Positions 3,757 through 62,241 of a stretch of DNA of 64,000 nucleotides are shown here, piece by piece. How positions within the stretch are numbered: the stretch's first letter is position 1; each line of letters begins with the position of its first letter. Under the pieces are notes generated by a model. It made no database searches, was not told where the DNA came from, and was given only the letters and a program-made list of their open reading frames with translations. The position numbers were made by a program, and so were the translations under genes. Origin of the DNA: Flavobacteriales bacterium (GTDB taxonomy: Bacteria; Bacteroidota; Bacteroidia; Flavobacteriales; Flavobacteriaceae); NCBI GenBank assembly GCA_027023475.1, contig JALVVJ010000019.1:1459-65458 (forward strand). The letters run 5' to 3'.

Positions 3757-3769
3757 TTTAGTTGTTCAG

Positions 3770-4389
3770 GCGTTCCGGGAACCTGCGGCTTCCTTAGGCC
3801 TGGCTATATGCCGCGCCTTGTTTCCCTTCACGGCTCCCGACATTGCTATGCAATGTGCGGGACAAGTTCCACAATCCCTCGGGGCGCCGGCGGCGGAATG
3901 AAAATTCCGCTGCCGGCGGCGCAAATGATATCGGGGCGGCGAGTTTTAATCTGAGAAACCCGGTAAAATACCACCTCGACCGTAGAATTCCTCCTTTGTT
4001 TTGCGCCGCCCGGCCCCGCGCCTTCGGCGCGGGGCCGGCGCCCCTTGTCTTGTTCCGCGGCTTCGCGAACCGCCTTGTGGCGTTTCGCTTCGCGGGCCTC
4101 GGAACCCTTCGGTTTCCTCGGCGGCTCCGGGAACCTGCGGCTTCCAATGACCAACGCCACAGGCCGCACCTTGTTTCCCTTCGCACCTTCGGGAGCCGGC
4201 GCGTTCCGCCTTCGGCTCCACGCTTGTCTCCCTACGGGCTCCACAAGCCGGCGCTTCGCCTGCGGCTTCGCTTGTCTTGTTCCGCAGCTACGGCAGCCAC
4301 CTACGGTGTCTGCCTTCGCCACCGCGTCAGCCCTGCGGTCTGCCGCGGGCTCCGCGAGCCCTCCGGTCTCGCTCCGCTACAATTTTTTT
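3770..4389 (+). repeat. Family-B GC-rich composite repeat, copy B1
   Basis: Aligns along its length with B6 (52005..52585) and the reverse complement of B5 (45176..45772). Hairpin 1 is at 3883..3922 and hairpin 2 at 4010..4038, followed by a tail of degenerate CTTGTCTCCCT / GCTTCGC / CCTGCGG units. Boundaries are approximate. Confidence 0.85.
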
Positions 4390-4440
4390 CGGAATGAGAA
4401 CACCGATTAACGATTAATCGATTTAAGATTTCCGAATTTT

Positions 4441-4788
4441 TCAAATCGCTAATCGATGTTCAAATGTTAGGTGTTCATTATTCGAGCGCCGGTCCCTGAG
4501 TGATTTTTGCGTAGCAAAAATTGTATCGAAGGGACGGCGCGCAACAAGCGCCAGGGATGGGAGCGGTTATGAGCCGAAGGGCTGCCCGAGCATTTTCCCG
4601 CAGGCGGAGGCCGACAGCGTGAGGCCCCACGCACCGCGGTGGCGCGAAGCGCCTAAATGCCGGTGCAGCCCGAGGTGAATTTGAGCGGACAGCCCGGTTC
4701 CCGCCTCGTGAACACGTCGCAGGACAAACAACGTGCAGGCCTGCGGCTGTGTGAACGAGTGCGGGAAGGCGCCCAAATAAAAAACACG
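4441..4788 (+). repeat. Family-A GC-rich structured repeat, copy A1 (core 4548..4788, extended left arm shared with A3)
   Basis: Core begins GCGCCAGGGATGGGAGCGGTTATG and ends GGCGCCCAAATAAAAAACAC. Two GTGAAC boxes bracket the hairpin 4716-4723/4740-4747. The left arm AAATCGCTAATCG...ATTCGAG-hairpin also occurs next to A3. Confidence 0.85.
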
Positions 4789-34154: not shown

Positions 34155-34484
34155 CCCGGTGTTTTTTTGTTTTGGGCGCCTGCCCGCACCCGTTCACACA
34201 GCCGCAGGCCTGCACGTTGTTTGTCCTGCGACGTGTTCACGGGCCGGCCACCGGGCTGTCCGCTTAAATTCGCCTTGGCTGCTCGCTGCTTTTGCGCGGG
34301 CGCGCGTGCCACGCGCCCGCGCCCGCCCGTGCGTGGGGCTTCCTGCCGGTCGCCTCCGCAGGGCGGAAAAGCATGCTCGCCGCCTACGGCTCATAACCGC
34401 TCCCATCCCTGGCGCGTTGGCTCGGGCGGCAAGCCGCCCTCGAATCAAGAACATCGAACAGATGATTAACGATTGGCGATTTGT
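34155..34484 (-). repeat. Family-A repeat, copy A3 (core 34155..34416 plus the extended arm shared with A1)
   Basis: The reverse complement starts CGCGCCAGGGATGGGAGCGGTTATG and ends GGCGCCCAAAACAAAAAAACAC. Its variable hairpin is identical to A1 and its central hairpin is lengthened. Confidence 0.85.
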
Positions 34485-34734
34485 CCTCTCCTAGTGAAAA
34501 TATTGAAGCAGGATGTCATTTCGAAGGAGTTCCCGAAGGGAACGACTGAGAAATCTCTACACGGGCAATTCATACAAGGGGGAATTCTACGTTCCTATTG
34601 TCCAATCCGCGAAGAGATTCCTTCCCGACCTTCGGTGCGGGACAGGCTGGCGTTTTACCTTGTTGTCGCCCGGCAATATTTTGTCGGAATGACATCACTC
34701 TCCTATTGTAAACATTGATGCAAGTCTGTCATTC
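34484..34734. repeat. Family-C inverted-pair repeat, locus C3
   Basis: Left unit 34515..34564 (GTCATTTCGA...GAGAAATCTCTACACGG) and inverted right unit 34607..34693 (...GAGATTCC...GTCGGAATGAC). Flanking direct repeats are of the TCCTATTGTAAACATTGA type. Confidence 0.8.
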
Positions 34735-38706: not shown

Positions 38707-38958
38707 CGCGCCAGGGATGGGAGCGGTTATGCGGAGACGTCGGCGAGCATGCTTTTCCGCCCGGTGGAGGCTGACAGTGGGAAGCCCTACGCACGGGCGG
38801 GCGCGGGCAAGCCGCAGGCGCAGCCCGCGCAAAAAGCAGCGAGCCGACAAGCCGCATTTGAGCGGACAGCCCGGTCCCGCCTCGTGAACGCGTCGCCGGA
38901 TGAGCCACAGGCGAAAGCCGGCGGCAGTCGTGAACGAGTGCGGGAGGCGCCCTAAAAA
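38707..38958 (+). repeat. Family-A repeat, copy A4
   Basis: Runs from CGCGCCAGGGATGGGAGCGGTTATG to GTGAACGAGTGCGGGAGGCGCCCTAAAAATC. Central hairpin at 38801..38830 and variable hairpin at 38892-38899/38918-38925. Confidence 0.9.
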
Positions 38959-41961: not shown

Positions 41962-42043
41962 TAATATTTGGTTTGAATCATTCCGTGTTTTATTTACCGT
42001 GCAAGCCCCTGTGCAGGAAGCCGCCCGAATTAATCCAACCGTA

Positions 42044-42973
42044 TTACACTGACTTGGCACTGCGCGGATGATATTTTTCCAAACTTTCGCGGATTTGTTT
42101 TTGGGAGGTGTGCAAATAGATTTCGGTAGTGGTGATGTTTTCGTGCCCCAATAGCAACTGGATGCTGTGCAAATCGGCACCGTTTTCCAAAAGATGTGTG
42201 GCAAAACTGTGCCGCAAGGTATGCGGACTGATATTTTTGGTGATGCCGGCTTCCTTGGCATAATTTTTCAAAAAAACATAGATCATATGCCGGCTCAATT
42301 GGCCGCCCCGCCGGTTGAGAAACACATAGTCGCGGGCTTCCTTTTTGGGCTCCACCTGCGGCCGCACCCGTTCCAAATAAAGGCGTAGAATCCGGGCCGT
42401 ATATTTTTCCAAGGGCACAAAGCGGTGCTTGCTTCCCTTGCCCAAGATGCGCAAAAAACCTTCGTCGAAAAAAATATCTCCGGTTTTCAGGTTTACCGTT
42501 TCGCTCACCCGCAGGCCGCAGGCATACATCAGTTCGATGATGGCATGGTTGCGTTCGCCCTCGAAGGTGGAGCGGTCGATGGCGGCCAAAATCCGGTCGA
42601 TTTCGTCCGTGCTGAGCGTTTCGGGAATTTTGCGGTTGAGCTTAGGCGCTTCCACCCAGTCCACCGGATTGGCTTGGAGCCGGTTTTCCAATATCAAATA
42701 ATCGAAGAAATTACGCAAACCCGACAGCATACGTGCCTGCGTGCGCGGGCTTACGTAATCGGCCATCCGGTAAATAAATTCTTTGACCGAATGCTTGTCC
42801 AAATCCTTCAAAGCCACACGGCGGGCATCCTCACCCGCTACAAAGCGCAGGTATTTTTCCAAATCCTGCATATAAGCCGCCACCGAATGCGCCGCCAGCT
42901 TTTTTTCCCATTGTAGATAATTGCGGTATTCGGCCACCAAAAATTCCAAAGATTTACTCAGATCCGGCATCAT
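42044..42973 (-). CDS. xerD: Site-specific tyrosine recombinase XerD/XerC family
   Basis: C-terminal HTLRHSFATHLLENGADLHSIQLLLGHENITTTEIYLH (R-H-R-Y catalytic pattern). An N-terminal SAM-like domain is present. The XerC versus XerD assignment is not certain. Confidence 0.8.
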   Translation of the reverse strand: MMPDLSKSLEFLVAEYRNYLQWEKKLAAHSVAAYMQDLEKYLRFVAGEDARRVALKDLDKHSVKEFIYRMADYVSPRTQARMLSGLRNFFDYLILENRLQANPVDWVEAPKLNRKIPETLSTDEIDRILAAIDRSTFEGERNHAIIELMYACGLRVSETVNLKTGDIFFDEGFLRILGKGSKHRFVPLEKYTARILRLYLERVRPQVEPKKEARDYVFLNRRGGQLSRHMIYVFLKNYAKEAGITKNISPHTLRHSFATHLLENGADLHSIQLLLGHENITTTEIYLHTSQKQIRESLEKYHPRSAKSV

Positions 42974-43059
42974 TTTTGCTATAAAAGTTACATCCGTTTT
43001 TCGGTTTCAATAATTTGAAATAAATTTATTCCAAATATATAAACAAAAAACGCATAGCT

Positions 43060-43662
43060 ATGAAAAAGAAATGGATTTTACCGCTCGTTCTGATGCTTTT
43101 TGCCTATTCGTTGGCCAATGCACAGGATTTTCGTATCGGGCTTTCCTTGGCGCCCAGCATCAACTTCAACAAGGGGTTTGTCAAGGTAAACGGTAATTTT
43201 GTCCAAGTGGATTCGCTCAAAAGCGGCGGTTTGGGCTTCAAAGGCGGCCTTTGGGCCGATTACGGCTTTGCCAAAAACTATTACCTGCATTCGGGCATTA
43301 TGATTCACAGCCGTAATTTCAAATCGGATTTTTCCAATATGAAAATCACCACGGTGGAAGTGCCCTTGGCCCTCAAAATGCGTAGCAATGAAGTGGCCGA
43401 CAATATTCGTATTTTGGGCTTTTTCGGCGCCACGCTCGACATCAACGTAACGGCCAAAAGCGGTAGTGTGGTTATTACCGACCAGGTGAACAAAATCGGT
43501 TCGTCCTTGATTTTCGGTGCCGGTGCCGAATACAATGTGGGCTTTGGCAACATCAATCTCGGACTCTCCTATCATTTGGGTATGACCGACGTGATGAACT
43601 CATCGCTTATCCGTCAAATGCCGCGCCACTTGTCCGTTGATTTCACCTTCTACTTTAATTAA
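43060..43662 (+). CDS. Small outer-membrane beta-barrel protein (porin-family/OmpW-like)
   Basis: Signal peptide MKKKWILPLVLMLFAYSLANAQ, alternating hydrophobic beta-strand pattern, C-terminal aromatic ...FTFYFN. Confidence 0.7.
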   Translation: MKKKWILPLVLMLFAYSLANAQDFRIGLSLAPSINFNKGFVKVNGNFVQVDSLKSGGLGFKGGLWADYGFAKNYYLHSGIMIHSRNFKSDFSNMKITTVEVPLALKMRSNEVADNIRILGFFGATLDINVTAKSGSVVITDQVNKIGSSLIFGAGAEYNVGFGNINLGLSYHLGMTDVMNSSLIRQMPRHLSVDFTFYFN

Positions 43663-43672
43663 AACGGACGCA

Positions 43673-44560
43673 TTATTTCAACGTATGTAAACGCGACGTC
43701 CGGGCAAAGCCGTTTTCCCAGGCGTCGCCGTTATTTTGCAGTATTTCCGGCACATTGCGAACGGTATATATGTGCGGGTCGTTCAAGTTGCGCAGCTGTT
43801 CCCAGCTAAGCGGCATAGACACCGACGCCACGGGCGTTGCCCGTGTGCCATAGGGCATGCTGAACGTTTGAAAGGCACGGTTACGGTAAATATCAATCAA
43901 GAATTTGCCACGTCGCTTGTCTTTGCGTACATCCAGGGTGGAACCGGGAAAAGCGCGCATAATCTCCCTTGCAACACTTTCGGCTGCTTCCATCACTTGG
44001 TCCACCGTGTAGGCGGGTTCCAAAGGACAAACAATGTGCACACCCCGCTTGCCCGAAGTTTTGACCAGCGTAGTGTAGCCCAATTTTTCGATCACCGGCC
44101 GTATGCCTAGGGCAAAATCACGGATTTCTTCAAAACCGGCCCCGTCGGGCGGGTCGATGTCGAACACCATCAGGTCGGGATTGGCCCAATGCGGCTTGCA
44201 GATGCCCATCACGTGGAATTCCAAAGCGTGCAATTGCACCAACCATATCAGGTCGGCCACCTGTTCCAATACCACATAACGGGTGGGTTTGAATTTGCCC
44301 ATTTCGCGAATTTCCACAAAGGACGGCACCGGATCGGGTGCATTTTTTTGAAAAAACGAATATCCGGGCGCCCCGTGCGGATAACGGACAAATACCAAGG
44401 GCCTTCCGCGATTATAGCGTAGGATGTAAGGCGCCACGGCCAAATAATAATCCATCAATTCCCGCTTGGTGATGCCCGTTTGCGGGAAAAGCGGTTTATC
44501 GGGATGCGTAATTCGCAGTTCAAAACCATCAACACGAAGGATTTGCTCGTGAGCATCCAT
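43673..44560 (-). CDS. LigD-type NHEJ polymerase/primase domain protein (stand-alone PolDom)
   Basis: The N-terminus LRVDGFELRITHPDKPLFPQTGITKRELMDYY and the LVFDIDPP-like MVFDIDPPDG and KTSGKRGVHI motifs are typical of LigD PolDom (AEP primase fold). Confidence 0.8.
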   Translation of the reverse strand: MDAHEQILRVDGFELRITHPDKPLFPQTGITKRELMDYYLAVAPYILRYNRGRPLVFVRYPHGAPGYSFFQKNAPDPVPSFVEIREMGKFKPTRYVVLEQVADLIWLVQLHALEFHVMGICKPHWANPDLMVFDIDPPDGAGFEEIRDFALGIRPVIEKLGYTTLVKTSGKRGVHIVCPLEPAYTVDQVMEAAESVAREIMRAFPGSTLDVRKDKRRGKFLIDIYRNRAFQTFSMPYGTRATPVASVSMPLSWEQLRNLNDPHIYTVRNVPEILQNNGDAWENGFARTSRLHTLK

Positions 44561-44608: not shown

Positions 44609-44867
44609 GTTTTTTGGGCGCCCCGCCGCACACGTTCACGCATCGGCGGTTGCTTCAAGGCGACGGAGCGCTTTCGCACCCGCCGCGTTCACGTGGCGCC
44701 GTCGGGCTGTCCGCTCAAATGCGGCTTGCCGGCTCGCTGCTTTTTGCGCGGGCTGCGCCTGCGCTTGCCCGCGCCCGCCCGTGCGTGGGGCTTCCTTCGG
44801 TCGCCTCCGCCGGACGGAAAAGCATCCTCGCCGCCTTCACCGCATAACCGCTCCCATCCCTGGCGCG
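44609..44867 (-). repeat. Family-A repeat, copy A5
   Basis: The reverse complement runs from CGCGCCAGGGATGGGAGCGGTTATGCGG to GTGAACGTGTGCGGCGGGGCGCCCAAAAAACA. Its variable hairpin has a CGGCGG/CCGCCG stem. Confidence 0.9.
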
Positions 44868-44968
44868 ATAATAAGGTGCGCGCGATAAATCGCTTTTCCC
44901 GCGCGATAAATCGCGCGGCTACAATGATACATCCGGCCTTGGTTGAAGCGTTCGGGTTTATGATTAAT

Positions 44969-45175
44969 GTCCTACTGTAAACATTGAAGGCAAATGTCAT
45001 TCCGACAGAGCCGCGTAGCGGCGACGAGGAATCTCTACACGGATACTCCATTCGGGGCGGAATATTAGATTCCTATTGTCTAATCCGTGATGAGATTCCT
45101 CGGCGTTTTACCTCGCTTACGCTCGGCAAAACTTTGTCGGAATGACATCGATCTCCTATTGCAAACATTGAAGGC
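44969..45175. repeat. Family-C inverted-pair repeat, locus C5
   Basis: Left unit 44996..45042 (GTCATTCCGACAGAGCCGCGTAGCGGCGACGAGGAATCTCTACACGG) and inverted right unit 45085..45146. TCCTAYTGYAAACATTGAAGG direct repeats sit at both ends. Confidence 0.85.
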
Positions 45176-45772
45176 GAAACCGAACAGCGGGTTCGCCGCT
45201 TCCCGAGGAGACCAAAGGGCTCCGAGGGCCGCAAGGAGACACCGCAGGTGGCTCCGAAGCACACGGAGCAAGACCGGAGGCGAAGCGAAGCGGCGCCGGA
45301 AGGGCTTGCGGAGTTGCGAAGGGAGACAAGCGCGAAGCCGCAGGCGGAGCGTGCCGGCTCCCTGAGCCGCGAAGGCAGACCGCAGGGCTGCCGGAGTGCC
45401 GGAGGGAGACAAAGCGCGGGCTTGGCATCAGCCGCTTGGCAGCCGAAGGATCCCGGAGGGCGGAACAAGACAAGGGGCGCCGGCCCGCGCCAAAGGCGCG
45501 GGCCGGGCGGCGCAAAAAAACGGTGGATTTTATTCGCTAAACCCAAAACAAATCATCGATGGCCGCAACAATCCATTTTCCGGAATAAGTTTTGCGCCGC
45601 CGGCAGCGGAATTTCATTCCGCCGCCGGCGCCCTGACGGCTTGTGGAGCCGTGGAGCAAGACCCGCAGGGGCTTGCGGAACCGCATAACTTGTCCCGTAT
45701 ATTGCCTGGCAATGTCAGGGAAACAAGGCGCAGCCCTTGGCGTAGGCCTATGGAAGCCGTATGTTCCCGAAG
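45176..45772 (-). repeat. Family-B repeat, copy B5
   Basis: The reverse complement aligns with B1 from TTCGGGAACATACGGCTTCC through hairpin 1 (45594..45632) and hairpin 2 (45480..45506) to the CTTGTCTCC/GCTTCGC tail. Confidence 0.85.
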
Positions 45773-45889
45773 CAAGTCAAAATTTAGTGGTTTTTAACGG
45801 AAAAATCATTGATCAGTCGAGTTGTCCTTCCGTCGTATTTAACTTTGGCAAGATTTTTGCTTCGGTTTTACAAAACCCAAGGATTAACC

Positions 45890-51999: not shown

Positions 52000-52004
52000 A
52001 TGAC

Positions 52005-52585
52005 GCTCCGGAACCGCTACGCGTTTCCTACGCGGCTCCGCAAGCCGTCAGGGCGCCGGCGGCGGAATGGAATTCCGCTGCCGGCGGCGCAAAATTTTGC
52101 GGCCATTGACAACAAATGATTTAAAGTTTCGACTACGCCATTCCCGGAAAACCCTGCCGGGATTTTGCGCCGCCGGCCCCGCGCGTGAGCGCGGGGCCAG
52201 CGCCCTTTGTCTTGCTACGCTGCTTCGGAAACCTCGTATGTTTGTAGCATGAAAAATTTTATAATTTTGTTCACATCCGATGCAAAAAGGAAAGAAGGTA
52301 AGAAATCTGGGAAACCTTGGTACGTACAAAACGATACCGTAGCGCAGAATGTATTCTTACCTTCTTTCTGCGCTTCCAAAGCCCAACGCCCGGGCCGCGC
52401 TTGTTTTCCTTCGCACCTCGGGGAACCCGCACGCTCCGCCTGCGACTCCGCGTTTGTCTCCCCTCGGGCTTCGCAAGCCCTTCCGGCTTCGCTTCGCTGT
52501 GCCGCAGGTCTTGCTTCGCGTGCTGCGGAGCCACACTGCCTCCCGACAAGTTCTGCTACGCCATGGCAGCGGTCTCCGCAGACAG
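52005..52585 (+). repeat. Family-B repeat, copy B6 (with a nested AT-rich insertion at about 52225..52372)
   Basis: Hairpin 1 at 52052..52090 and hairpin 2 at 52175..52198 (GTGA loop). The tail is of the CGCGTTTGTCTCCCCTCGGGCTTCGCAAGCCC... type and aligns with B1 and B5. Confidence 0.85.
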
Positions 52586-59013: not shown

Positions 59014-62000
59014 ATGAGAGTCATATTTTTAGTTACCGTTTTTGTTTGGGCTCTTGGAATTACACGGGCCCAAGTGAGCATCAACACCGACGGGAGCCAG
59101 CCACATGCTTCCGCCATGTTGGACATTCAAAGCACTTCCAAGGGATTATTGATTCCCAGGATGACAAAGGATCAACGCGATGGTATTGTTTCGCCGGCCG
59201 AAGGTTTGATGATTTACCAAACCGACAACACACCGGGTTTTTATTATTATGACGGCACAGCTTGGTTGATGGTTCAGAACGCTGCTACGGCCGTAAAAAA
59301 AATCGATGACTTGGAAGATGGCAAATCCGACAACGACGGCACCGACAACGGTTCGTCGGTTTTCCTGGGGCATGAGGCCGGCCTTTCCGATGATGCTACC
59401 GACAACAGGAATGTGGGGGTGGGGTATCAGGCGTTATTGTTTGACGGAACCGGGCTTTCCGATAAGCGTTATTGTACAGGTATTGGATATCAGGCTTTGC
59501 GGGAATACCGGGCCGATTATAATACTGGCATTGGATACAAAGCGTTATATTTGGTTGGGGACAGTTGTAATACGGCTGTGGGAGCCGAGGCCGGATACCG
59601 GACCAGTGGAGTCCACAATGTGGCAGTAGGATACAGGGCTTTATATCAAAACAATGGCGATAATATCACGGCCGTTGGTTCACAGGCTTTGTATAGCAAT
59701 GATGGTGGGACAGGAAATACCGCATTGGGATATGCATCACTATACAGCAATGAATACGGACATTATAATACCGCATCCGGTGCCCAAGCCCTTTACAGTA
59801 ATATAAACGGCTATCGTAATACCGCCATGGGATACCAAGCCCTTTACAACAATTATAACAATGACAATTCCGCTTTCGGTTATCAAGCGCTATACAACAA
59901 TACCGGAGGCAGAGAAAATACGGCAATAGGTTCCGAAGCACTTTACAGCGGTACGAACATCAGTAATAACACCGCGGTAGGTTACCGGGCACTTTACCAT
60001 AACCAAACAAACAGCAATGCGGCATTTGGGCACAGCGCATTGTTTAGTAACACAACCGGAGTGGCCAATGTGGCTGTGGGTAACGGAACGCTTTATTCCA
60101 ATCAAACGGGCTATGATAACACAGCCATAGGTACAGGAGCGCTGAACGCTAACACAACGGGCAGTTTTAATACGGCTTGTGGAAGGGCATCGCTCCAATC
60201 CAATACCGAAGGCGAATGGAATGTGGCTATGGGAAAAGAAGCTTTATTCAACAATACTACCGGCGGCCAAAACACGTCCATAGGTTCCAAATCCTTACGG
60301 GCAAATACTACCGGAGAAAAAAATACGGCTCTGGGATATGGTGCTTTAACTGGAAATAGTATCGGCAATGAAAATACAGCCGTAGGATATGGTGCAATAA
60401 AACAAAGTGTTTATAGCCAACGCACAGCCGTTGGATACGAAGCCGGCTTCCGTGCAGGCGAGGGCACGGTGGCTGTGGGATATCAAACAGTTCATGAACA
60501 TTCTGTGGGGTATAGTGTGGCTATCGGCTATCAAAGCATGTATAATGGTGGGGGTGGTTCCAGTGTGGCCATAGGTCATCAGGCCTATTATGCCTATGGC
60601 GGCACCAACAATACGGCCATTGGGTATCAAGCGCTGTACAGCAACAATGAAGGAGGGTACAATGTTGCCATTGGTTCCCAAACGCTTTATTCCAACACCA
60701 CCGGCGACAGGAATATTGCAATTGGAAACGATGCACTTTTTAATAATACGTCCGGCCAATTGAATATAGCCATTGGCAGCGAGTCATTATACGCAAATAC
60801 AACTGGACACCTAAATATTGCTTTGGGTTATTATGCACTTCATGAAAACACAACGGGCATGTATAATATTGGTTTGGGTTATTATGTACTTCGTGAAAAT
60901 TCAACTGGTCATGACAATATTGCCTTGGGGAACAGTACGCTTATGAATAATACAACAGGAGCTAATAATATAGCGGGAGGATTTAACGCCCTGAAAAACA
61001 ATACAGCCGGCAATTACAATATTGTTTTGGGATATTTGGCTATGAATAACAATGACGATGGATCCAAAAATATTGCCATAGGAATGAGTGCGCTCTCTTC
61101 CAACACTTCGGGAGATGACAATATTGCCATTGGCGAACAATCCCTTTATACAAATACAACGGGCTATGAGAATGTGGCCATAGGGCACATGGCTATTAAT
61201 CGCAATACAACGGGAGCATATAACTGTGCAGTTGGTGCCTATGCACTTAGGGCCAATCAAACAGGAAACGATAACGTTGCTATCGGGACATCGGCATTGA
61301 ATTACAATACTTCCGGATTCGGTAATACGGCATGTGGAAGAGGAGCATTGTTTAAGAATTCAAACGGACAATATAATAGTGCTTTGGGTTATTCGGCACT
61401 CAACGCGAACAGGGCGGGACGAGAAAACATAGCTGTTGGTTTTAAGGCACTTTATCGTAACATTAATGGCAATGATAACATTGCCATAGGGTCAAGCGCT
61501 CTTTACAACACCACAAATAACAATAACATTGGTATAGGAAAGTATGCATTGTATGATAATGGTCCTGGCTACAATAATGTTGCCATTGGCCATGGTGCGC
61601 TCAATCGTAATACTAACGGGTACAATAATACCGCTGTGGGATATCAGGCCTTTTATTATCATTCAGACTACAACAACTCCACGGCGTTGGGCTACAATGC
61701 CCAACCCACTGCCAGCAACCAAGTGCGTATAGGCAATGCCGATGTTACCAGCATTGGCGGTTATGCCGACTGGACCAATCTGTCGGATGCCAGGTTCAAG
61801 AAAGATGTGCGGGAAAATGTAGTGGGTTTGCCATTTATCATGAAGTTGCGTCCCATCACTTACCGGTTGGATATGGATGCCTTGGCGGCCTTTTTGCACA
61901 CCCCTGACAGCTTACGTATACCCGAAGCCGAAAAACGTAAAGCATCGGAAGTGCAAAGCGGTTTTATAGCCCAGGAAGTGGAGCAGGCGGCCCGTAGCGT

Positions 62001-62241
62001 GGGCTATGATTTCCATGGTGTTGATAAACCGGATAATGAAAACGATACCTACGGCTTGCGTTATGCGGAGTTTGTTGTTCCCATGGTCAAAGCCATGCAA
62101 GAACAACAAAGAGAAATTGAACGTCAGCGGGCGGAAATCGAGGATTTGAAACGCAGGAATGCACGACTCGAAGAGTTGGTGAACCGGTTGCTAAGTCAAG
62201 ATCGTAATATCAGCCGAAGACAGGACAGCGAAGGTGGCTGA
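59014..62241 (+). CDS. Large repeat protein: conserved Bacteroidota N-terminal domain, ~40-50 x 17-aa NxAxGxxAL-type repeats, C-terminal tail-fibre intramolecular-chaperone (peptidase S74-like) domain
   Basis: Signal peptide [20 protein letters not shown] and N-terminal motif KGLLIPRMT...GLMIYQTD...GFYYYDG. The 17-aa period is visible as [17 protein letters not shown] / [17 protein letters not shown] and so on. The C-terminus reads [10 protein letters not shown]...LRPITYRLD...GFIAQEVEQ...YGLRYAEFV, followed by a coiled coil. Confidence 0.85.

Follow-up and report, generated by a model that had tools for sequence, protein, structure and literature searches.

What kind of element occupies the G+C-rich, hairpin-dense sequence that stands between genes at positions 38,707 to 38,958 of a Flavobacteriales chromosome fragment, and that recurs along it? 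The window considered here is the whole stretch of 64,000 nucleotides taken from contig JALVVJ010000019.1 (assembly GCA_027023475.1, positions 1,459 to 65,458), for which a preliminary description, made from the letters alone, had proposed six copies of one intergenic element, named Family A, with compensatory changes in its stems. The window itself is an ordinary piece of Bacteroidota chromosome, carrying a tRNA-Gln and genes for DnaG, citrate synthase, SecDF, PGI, IspB and others. Taken together, the sequence comparisons reported below indicate that Family A is a real, undescribed, lineage-restricted family of structured repeats of the interspersed-palindrome kind.

Copies of Family A in the window

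All six proposed copies were recovered at their places by both a gapped sequence pattern and a covariance model, R1. The pattern GAGCGGTWATG-N15-30-TTTTCC-N5-10-GGAGGC matched at 4561 (+), 27229 (-), 34402 (-), 38721 (+), 44853 (-) and 62381 (+) and gave no match in 100 shuffles, a 25-nt 5' block occurred five times in the window at up to one mismatch, and the covariance model, run with filters off over the whole window, returned six copies and no seventh (an 'A6' does not exist). With limits set from the 5' GCGCC through the 3' GGCGCC, after which C-W-AAAAA comes next in every case, the copies are as follows.

4548-4773, with tail to 4780, plus strand: A1, covariance model 76 bits
27241-27017, with tail to 27010, minus strand: A2, covariance model 77 bits, model positions 28-141 only
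34415-34175, with tail to 34168, minus strand: A3, pattern and covariance model, 151.7 bits
38708-38951, with tail to 38958, plus strand: A4, pattern and covariance model, 135.6 bits sense and 27 bits antisense
44866-44617, with tail to 44610, minus strand: A5, pattern and covariance model, 145.1 bits
62368-62783, with tail to 62790, plus strand: A7, the long form, covariance model 145.2 bits

There is thus one copy for every ~10.7 kb, and together the copies cover 2.6% of the window. The G+C richness first estimated by eye was borne out on computation, the copies having 0.65-0.73 G+C versus 0.49 for the window and 0.43-0.57 for the flanking genes. A1 has P6 and P8 stems (see below) of another sequence type, a P10 hairpin cut down to GGCGC-GAA-GCGCC, and the arm type of A3 on a different core. 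A2 represents a divergent subfamily with the closing stem GCGTG...CACGC and a different basal region; its relatives were found at L010, L048, L062, L055 and L039 (L numbers denote loci outside the window), and the flanks of L010 and L048 match one another. The A7 arm is enlarged through nested hairpin modules, among them CCCCGGCCCCGCGGCGAAGCCGCGGGGCCGGGG, which is also present in the 'family B' repeats described further below. Close counterparts exist for A5 (L072, 99% identical) and A7 (L081, identical).

Elements range in length from 164 to 578 nt, clustering near 200, 245 and 350-420; none contains an open reading frame (ORF), and none was seen within a recognised gene. The long ORFs predicted across these places had been judged not to be conserved proteins, and rightly so: the 1-nt differences between copies are real and shift the frame, and a Pfam search of the ORFs spanning A4, A5 and A7 returned no family. 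A coding reading was likewise rejected for the multi-copy 'ORFs' of the related loci, which are the repeat translated and have no Pfam match. Family A was also said to be no known RNA, and it has no Rfam match at gathering or E-value thresholds: release 15, searched with the whole window at gathering score, gave only a tRNA and an S15-Flavobacteria leader, and the A4 region at E <= 10 gave only a chance sR30 match (E = 2.5).

Covariation and fold

Covariation was assessed on the 87 sense copies that model R1 found, divergent subfamilies included, in the window plus 73 related loci (455 kb in all). A plain MAFFT alignment with RNAalifold was tried first and under-predicted the fold because stem types were misaligned; a model-based alignment was used instead. 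In this sense-only alignment of the core, which is fitted to the structure and made up of copies related to one another, standard pairs filled 94.9% of 4,228 cells, versus 79.0% in shuffled controls and 30-51% with slid partners, and changes were present on both sides in 45 of 56 core pairs, with four pair types at several positions. The arm alignment (21 arms) contained 23 pairs, 18 of them with compensatory change, so that the original claim of pairing kept by compensatory changes stands for core and arm alike. Double-sided changes reach even the best-conserved basal stems and distinguish whole subfamilies, P2 passing from GGG/CCC to GCG/CGC and P3 from UG/CA to GC/GC in subfamily A', and P1 from GCGCC/GGCGC to GCGTG/CACGC, a double compensatory change, in A2-type copies. 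Despite the alignment caveats, the controls with slid partners and the variety of pair types make the conclusion that the fold is selected robust.

G.U was counted in 80 cells (26 pair columns) versus 28 for A.C (15 pair columns), and G.A in 101. The sense strand had the lower minimum free energy (MFE) in 52 of 64 elements, with a mean gain of 7.5 kcal/mol of about 165 (-167 versus -159 antisense). One strand is under selection; the sense preference is modest, and RNA and single-stranded DNA are not told apart by it.

From 5' to 3', the element consists of a 5-bp closing stem, a rod-like core of ~165 nt from which a single hairpin projects sideways, a 3' arm measuring 30-400 nt and a GGCGCC-C-W-AAAAA tail, and the MFE folds of twelve short copies are mutually consistent. 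Stem P1 (GCGCC/GGCGC) closes the element, and the core is made up of P2 (GGG/CCC), P3 (UG/CA), P4 inside a symmetric GAGCGG/GAGCGG loop, P5, the hypervariable P6, P7 (GCUUUU/AAAAGC), P8, the terminal hairpin P9 and the side hairpin P10. In the folded model, the conserved sequence blocks come together at a three-way junction made by the closing stem, the core and the arm. The impression of a hairpin-dense sequence is matched by the computed fold of A4 (-144.4 kcal/mol, z = -6.5), whose parts are as follows.

38708-38712, plus strand: 5' strand of P1, GCGCC, pairing with 38946-38950 in the MFE folds of A4 and 12 short copies
38708-38873, plus strand: conserved core (irregular hairpin P2-P9 plus P10), from model R1
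38801-38830, plus strand: P10 side hairpin, GCGCGGGC...GCCCGCGC, a swappable module with 12 of 13 pairs compensatory (helix 9)
38875-38945, plus strand: variable 3' arm, a long hairpin, with GTGAAC boxes at 38884-38889 and 38930-38935
38946-38958, plus strand: 3' strand of P1 (GGCGC in GGCGCC) and C-W-AAAAA tail, from the composition per position of 46 distinct 3' flanks

The two GTGAAC boxes of A4 are opposed as U-A, G.A, A.G and A-U. The same arrangement characterises the common arm type, in which two (G/A)UGA(A/U)(C/U) boxes face each other as Watson-Crick, U-A, G.A, A.G, A-U and Watson-Crick pairs, the outer pairs covarying. The variable hairpin of the arm reads as first quoted, GTCGCAGG/CCTGCGGC at 4716-4723/4740-4747 in A1 and GTCGCCGG/CCGGCGGC at 38892-38899/38918-38925 in A4, and the reported variants of the central hairpin, lengthened in A3 and replaced by the short GAA-loop form in A1, were found as described. 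In the A4 orthologue at L068, 17 nt of P10, CGGGCAAGCCGCAGGCG, are duplicated in tandem.

A conserved 5' extension of ~95-110 nt, which ends in a covarying hairpin, precedes about half of the copies. The A3 type was found upstream of 15 copies, between which its hairpin covaries, and the A5 type also upstream of L013, L018, L024, L034, L035, L051 and L056.

34416-34510 (approximate), minus strand: 5' extension of A3, with CTTCAATATTTTCACTAGGAGA, TTCGATGTTCTTGATTCGAG, the hairpin GGGCGGC-TT-GCCGCCC and CCAAC
44867-44990, minus strand: 5' extension of A5, with the motif CCTTCAATGTTTACAGTAGG and then two GCGCGATTTATCGCGC hairpins

Exchange of modules between copies

The ispB locus shows how the copies evolve. 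Beside an identical 324-aa IspB, three combinations were found, namely core-a with arm-1 in the window, L068 and L079 (core-a wherever the core is assembled), core-a with arm-2 in L013 and L076, and core-b with arm-1 in L078; the 5' flanks differ too. Arm-2 is nearly identical to the arm of L031, a donor-like copy at another locus, which has only about 16 nt in common with the ispB copy 3' of the arm. What is exchanged in the arm is exactly the stretch between the CAGCCCG and GGCGCC blocks. Across 56 complete copies, four-gamete violations were counted for P6 and arm (9 quartets), P6 and P10 (4) and P10 and arm (5), and between orthologues of sister species the invariant blocks are almost unchanged, the differences in P6, P10 and the arm affecting each of these as a unit. 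Module swapping thus keeps the family both homogeneous and mosaic.

A smaller patch was seen in L027 (5952-6100) on comparison with window positions 4548-4696, on a contig 98.7% identical: the 5' halves of P6 and P8 in the A1 copy are of another subtype and no longer pair with the 3' halves, which have not changed. The patch lies 56 nt from a contig end and reflects either genuine conversion or chimeric assembly.

Distribution

Family A appears to be confined to one small group of uncultured Flavobacteriales. A pattern scan of one genome per species, covering 185,579 species, gave true matches in two Flavobacteriales metagenome-assembled genomes, WGAP01 and JALWYR01, three further matches being chance hits in A+T-rich or coding sequence. 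A second pattern retrieved 50 metagenome contigs, which came from two samples only; the pattern scan of viral contigs and BLAST against plasmids and phages gave none. Several contigs belong to the same species as the window (96.5-99.4% identity), and WGAP01 represents a sister species with proteins 62-97%, mostly 75-97%, identical. In the three nearest outgroups, whose IspB proteins are 81, 77 and 75% identical, the intergenic spacers are short and model R1 detected no copy around ispB in 97 kb of sequence, of which about 60 kb is non-redundant.

Origin and persistence of the family

The explanation that we favour, and to which we would give about an even chance, is that Family A is a position-stable, non-autonomous element akin to the REPINs and bacterial interspersed mosaic elements (BIMEs) built from repetitive extragenic palindromes (REPs), a selfish element that would be recognised in the form of a folded single DNA strand and kept homogeneous by exchange from copy to copy. 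Between an interspersed DNA repeat and an RNA gene, a choice that the preliminary description had left open, four observations favour the repeat: the lack of an upstream promoter motif, the unbiased orientation, the very narrow lineage and the reassortment of modules. A trans-acting, structure-specific enzyme would recognise the three-way junction on one strand of unwound DNA, the leading candidate being a HUH/Y1 enzyme resembling the REP-associated tyrosine transposases (RAYTs), and this enzyme would have dispersed the element among intergenic sites before the two sister species parted from their ancestor. Orthologous sites are mostly filled, which suggests that the family dispersed in that common ancestor and has been mostly stationary since; the copies now mostly stay put, swapping P6, P10 and the arm among themselves. 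Such exchange would rely on very short 3' homology, and at the swapped arms this favours site-specific strand transfer, or a switch of template, over ordinary RecA recombination. Effects on neighbouring genes would be secondary.

A number of observations weigh against this explanation. Tandem G.A pairs and GNRA/GNA loops are typical also of functional RNA, and between species the invariant blocks have changed less than the coding sequence beside them (roughly 90% nucleotide identity, judged by eye from alignments). No insertion event was caught: all six within-species locus pairs were filled, as were, between the sister species, three of four assessable sites, the fourth (L015 versus L028) being a remnant. 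No fixed target motif or conserved tetranucleotide precedes the 5' end, where merely a depletion of G was seen, and a GTAG/CGTC foot was not visible at the ends or hairpin feet of the aligned copies, inspected by eye with no dedicated search. The element is 5-15 times as long as a REP. Tblastn with RAYT, IS200 and IS608 proteins, together with a RAYT motif scan, found no such gene in 605 kb, a fraction of the genomes concerned, and the genes bracketed by two copies are housekeeping genes by Pfam (aminopeptidase P, a LacI regulator, a Na+/H+ antiporter). The window copies lie three per strand, and GC skew is negative in 48 of 64 1-kb windows and positive mainly at 36-39 and 58-63 kb, so that, on this small number, an IS200/IS605-like strand bias is not seen. 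Some of the strain comparisons use metagenome contigs, which may be chimeric at repeats; arm-1 and arm-2 are each backed by several independent assemblies.

A candidate empty site, L005 versus L047, proved to be a paralogue. At the remnant (L015, ~3990-4030, versus L028), the sister species keeps ~25 nt of the 3' end (…AAACCGGTGCGCCCCGAAAAAAAACAAAAAAT) of what is a full copy in the window species; the upstream neighbour differs, so that the element marks a synteny breakpoint.

Alternative explanations

The alternative that survives best is a multi-copy structured non-coding RNA, which might, for instance, hold proteins as a scaffold, act as a ribozyme or work in cis on mRNA ends and stability, with dispersal secondary; we regard it as a serious rival, though an unlikely one. 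It is in keeping with the extensive covariation, G.U pairs included, with the invariant internal-loop nucleotides, and with the tandem sheared G.A motifs (GUGAAC/GUGAAC and AUGAGCC/GGCGAAU) and GNRA and CUUG-type loops. The sense strand folds better, orthologous loci retain their copies, whose invariant blocks have diverged less than nearby coding sequence, and the G+C of the copies lies 20 points above that of the genome. High G+C is known for structural RNAs in AT-rich thermophiles and may have a parallel here. The signals of transcription, however, argue the other way. The Bacteroidetes -7 motif TAnnTTTG was found upstream of 4 of 72 copies at scattered positions, and an own promoter was rejected for want of a consistent position; A4 has neither a sigma-70-like promoter nor a terminator signal, and an intrinsic terminator was discarded at A4, where no stem with a T-run exists on either strand. 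At some loci, not generally, the A-tract is shared with the terminator of a convergent neighbour gene.

Orientation bears on the same alternative. Five of the six window copies lie upstream of a co-oriented gene, and a cis-regulatory leader of the downstream gene was considered and rejected: the larger sample has no orientation bias (34 same and 27 opposite for upstream neighbours, 34 and 34 for downstream ones), the five of six being a small-sample effect, and recognisable promoters of the downstream genes sit between element and gene. With random orientation, read-through would yield antisense RNA about half the time. An RNA gene also fits poorly with a copy number estimated in the hundreds per genome, with the tolerance of truncated, nested and module-swapped copies, with the absence of the family from close outgroups and Rfam, and with an antisense strand that folds almost equally well.

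A bolder version of exchange, which we hold to be rather improbable, is that the copies are fixed chromosomal 'docking sites', at which a dedicated single-strand-specific enzyme copies or swaps hairpin modules by cutting the conserved junction sequences. The exact arm borders, the 3' homology of no more than about 16 nt, the occupation of all examined sites and the blocks more conserved than coding sequence fit such a reading and do not prove it. If true, Family A would be a replicator that persists by overwriting copies rather than by new insertions, and its behaviour would amount to cassette exchange of non-coding structured modules.

Very unlikely, in our view, is a conventional MITE (miniature inverted-repeat transposable element), that is, an internally deleted insertion sequence derivative moved as double-stranded DNA by an end-binding DDE transposase. 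Size range, intergenic location, high copy number and narrow host range all fit, and the termini GCGCC...GGCGC form a short inverted repeat, but this terminal repeat comprises 5 bp only, where about 10 bp or more would be expected. No target-site duplication was detected in 46 distinct flank pairs (mean best match 2.43 versus 2.28 +/- 0.27 permuted, with 27% of permutations as high); striking flank repeats in a few cases, such as AAAAATC at A4 and TAAAAAT at L023, are no excess over permuted flanks. GCGCC itself was dismissed as a duplicated target, the A2 type having GCGTG...CACGC, which is inverted and not direct. Conservation peaks internally, in a block that lies 150 nt from the 5' end, and not at both termini, covariation of internal stems is unexpected for a double-stranded substrate, and no transposase-like multi-copy ORF was found in the loci.

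An RNA-mobilised retroelement, SINE-like or retron-like (an a1/a2 stem, msr-like core and msd-like hairpin, with a reverse transcriptase elsewhere), can hardly be the answer: all copies have a 3' A-rich tail, the 5' region is conserved and the 3' arm variable, the few truncated copies miss the 5' part, and the order of parts mirrors that of retron non-coding RNA, in which a closing stem encloses first a conserved structured part and then a long variable hairpin, but the tail is a fixed C-W-AAAAA and not a variable poly(A), target duplications, an excess of flanking direct repeats and a promoter motif are lacking, no reverse transcriptase gene lies beside any copy examined, the flanking genes being housekeeping, and the copies are positionally stable.

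Comparison with known systems

The closest likeness is to the REP/BIME/REPIN elements with their RAYT (TnpA_REP) enzymes, which are also high-copy, strictly intergenic, G+C-rich and palindromic, cause no target duplication, are lineage-specific and persistent at orthologous loci, form mosaics with recurring linker modules and some inverted doublets, and are thought to be recognised as folded single strands. In Family A, such doublets take the form of head-to-head A(-)/A'(+) pairs at L018 (3571-3991), L007 (1842-2373) and L074 (1-440), 120-225 nt apart with a shared linker; most copies are single, including all six of the window, whereas the doublet is the unit of the REP/REPIN system. A REP is a simple hairpin of 20-40 nt with a GT[AG]G or CGTC foot, whereas Family A measures 164-578 nt and is branched, with 56 core and about 23 arm pairs, and no RAYT gene was found in the 605 kb scanned. 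Classical REPs have GTAG or CGTC feet (PMC3733652). In Bacteroidetes, 'atypical secondary structures' flank TnpA_REP subclass 2.6 genes and recur at other sites of the genome (Quentin et al. 2018, PMC6006769). Their phylum, which is that of Family A, and their description as unusual structured repeats beside a RAYT-like gene make them a lead; no subclass 2.6 gene was found in the DNA examined.

Other systems resemble Family A in part. Pneumococcal BOX (boxA-B-C), Neisseria Correia and enterobacterial ERIC elements are likewise 100-400 nt long, modular, intergenic and strongly folding, with variable internal modules. Unlike Family A, the Correia and ERIC elements end in long inverted repeats, the former with a TA duplication in addition; to our knowledge, neither a three-way-junction fold with such compensatory density nor block exchange at fixed loci has been reported for BOX, Correia or ERIC. 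Integron attC sites share the priority of structure over sequence, short boxes at the ends of a variable palindrome, a folded-strand substrate and module exchange by site-specific recombination. However, attC sites measure 57-141 nt, follow cassette ORFs in arrays of a single orientation and have RYYYAAC/GTTRRRY boxes, whereas Family A is scattered in both orientations among housekeeping genes and lacks attC boxes. Retron msr-msd resembles Family A in the terminal inverted repeat that closes the molecule and in the conserved 5' part followed by a long variable hairpin; retrons are single-copy, far smaller and lie directly upstream of a reverse transcriptase, whereas Family A has 87 copies in 455 kb and no such adjoining gene.

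Other repeats and neighbouring loci

Two further G+C-rich or inverted repeats were noticed in the window. 'Family B', a second G+C-rich intergenic repeat of 0.5-0.6 kb, lies at 3760-4400, 45210-45790 (minus strand) and 52000-52580 and is built from short hairpins and CTTGTCTCCCT/GGCTCCG-type units set in arrays; its hairpin CCCGGCCCCGCG...CGCGGGGCCGG is common to the enlarged arm of A7. 'Family C', a third repeat, lies at 34548-34725 and 44967-45178, has inverted GTCGGAATGACATC-type ends and abuts the motif CCTACTGTAAACATTGAAGG. At other loci, this motif stands just upstream of A' copies and also, in inverted form, some 95 nt upstream of A copies; it may represent a junction or a target that they share. 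Absent from the window is an element with the look of a classical MITE, about 190 nt long and bounded by inverted repeats of ~22 bp (GGCGTTGCAGCAAGCATAAAAT ... ATTTTATGCTTGCTGCAACGCC), which is inserted in Family A arms at L022, L037, L053, L051, L061, L035 and L039, and in a short, internally deleted form at L008.

Downstream of dnaG, the window (41962-44560) carries genes for a XerD-like integrase, an outer membrane protein (OMP) beta-barrel and a stand-alone LigD-type primase-polymerase. L077, with an identical IspB, has an EPSP synthase gene there instead, so that strain gene order differs beside A5; the OMP-integrase pair is also present in an outgroup. The S15-Flavobacteria ribosomal protein leader (RF03161; 57907-57956, minus strand, 60.6 bits) serves as a phylum marker. 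At 60712-61476, seven in-register 51-nt (17-codon) repeats lie within an ORF of 1075 aa (59014-62241), whose protein has a C-terminal Peptidase_S74 (endosialidase chaperone) domain and looks like a repetitive, fibre-like surface protein.

Significance

In practical terms, these repeats break short-read assemblies of the lineage and coincide with synteny breakpoints, and they give rise to spurious ORFs of 90-150 codons, which annotation pipelines may call. How interspersed palindromic repeats, which are common in bacteria, are maintained is still debated, and Family A is unusually informative in this respect, combining a branched fold with dozens of independently covarying pairs, strictly invariant junctions, positions that are stable among strains and in a sister species, and reassorting modules. 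It thereby lets spread by new insertion be told from maintenance by exchange between copies, and gives a concrete folded substrate to set against the RAYT-like enzymes of Bacteroidetes, whose repeats have been described only as 'atypical'.

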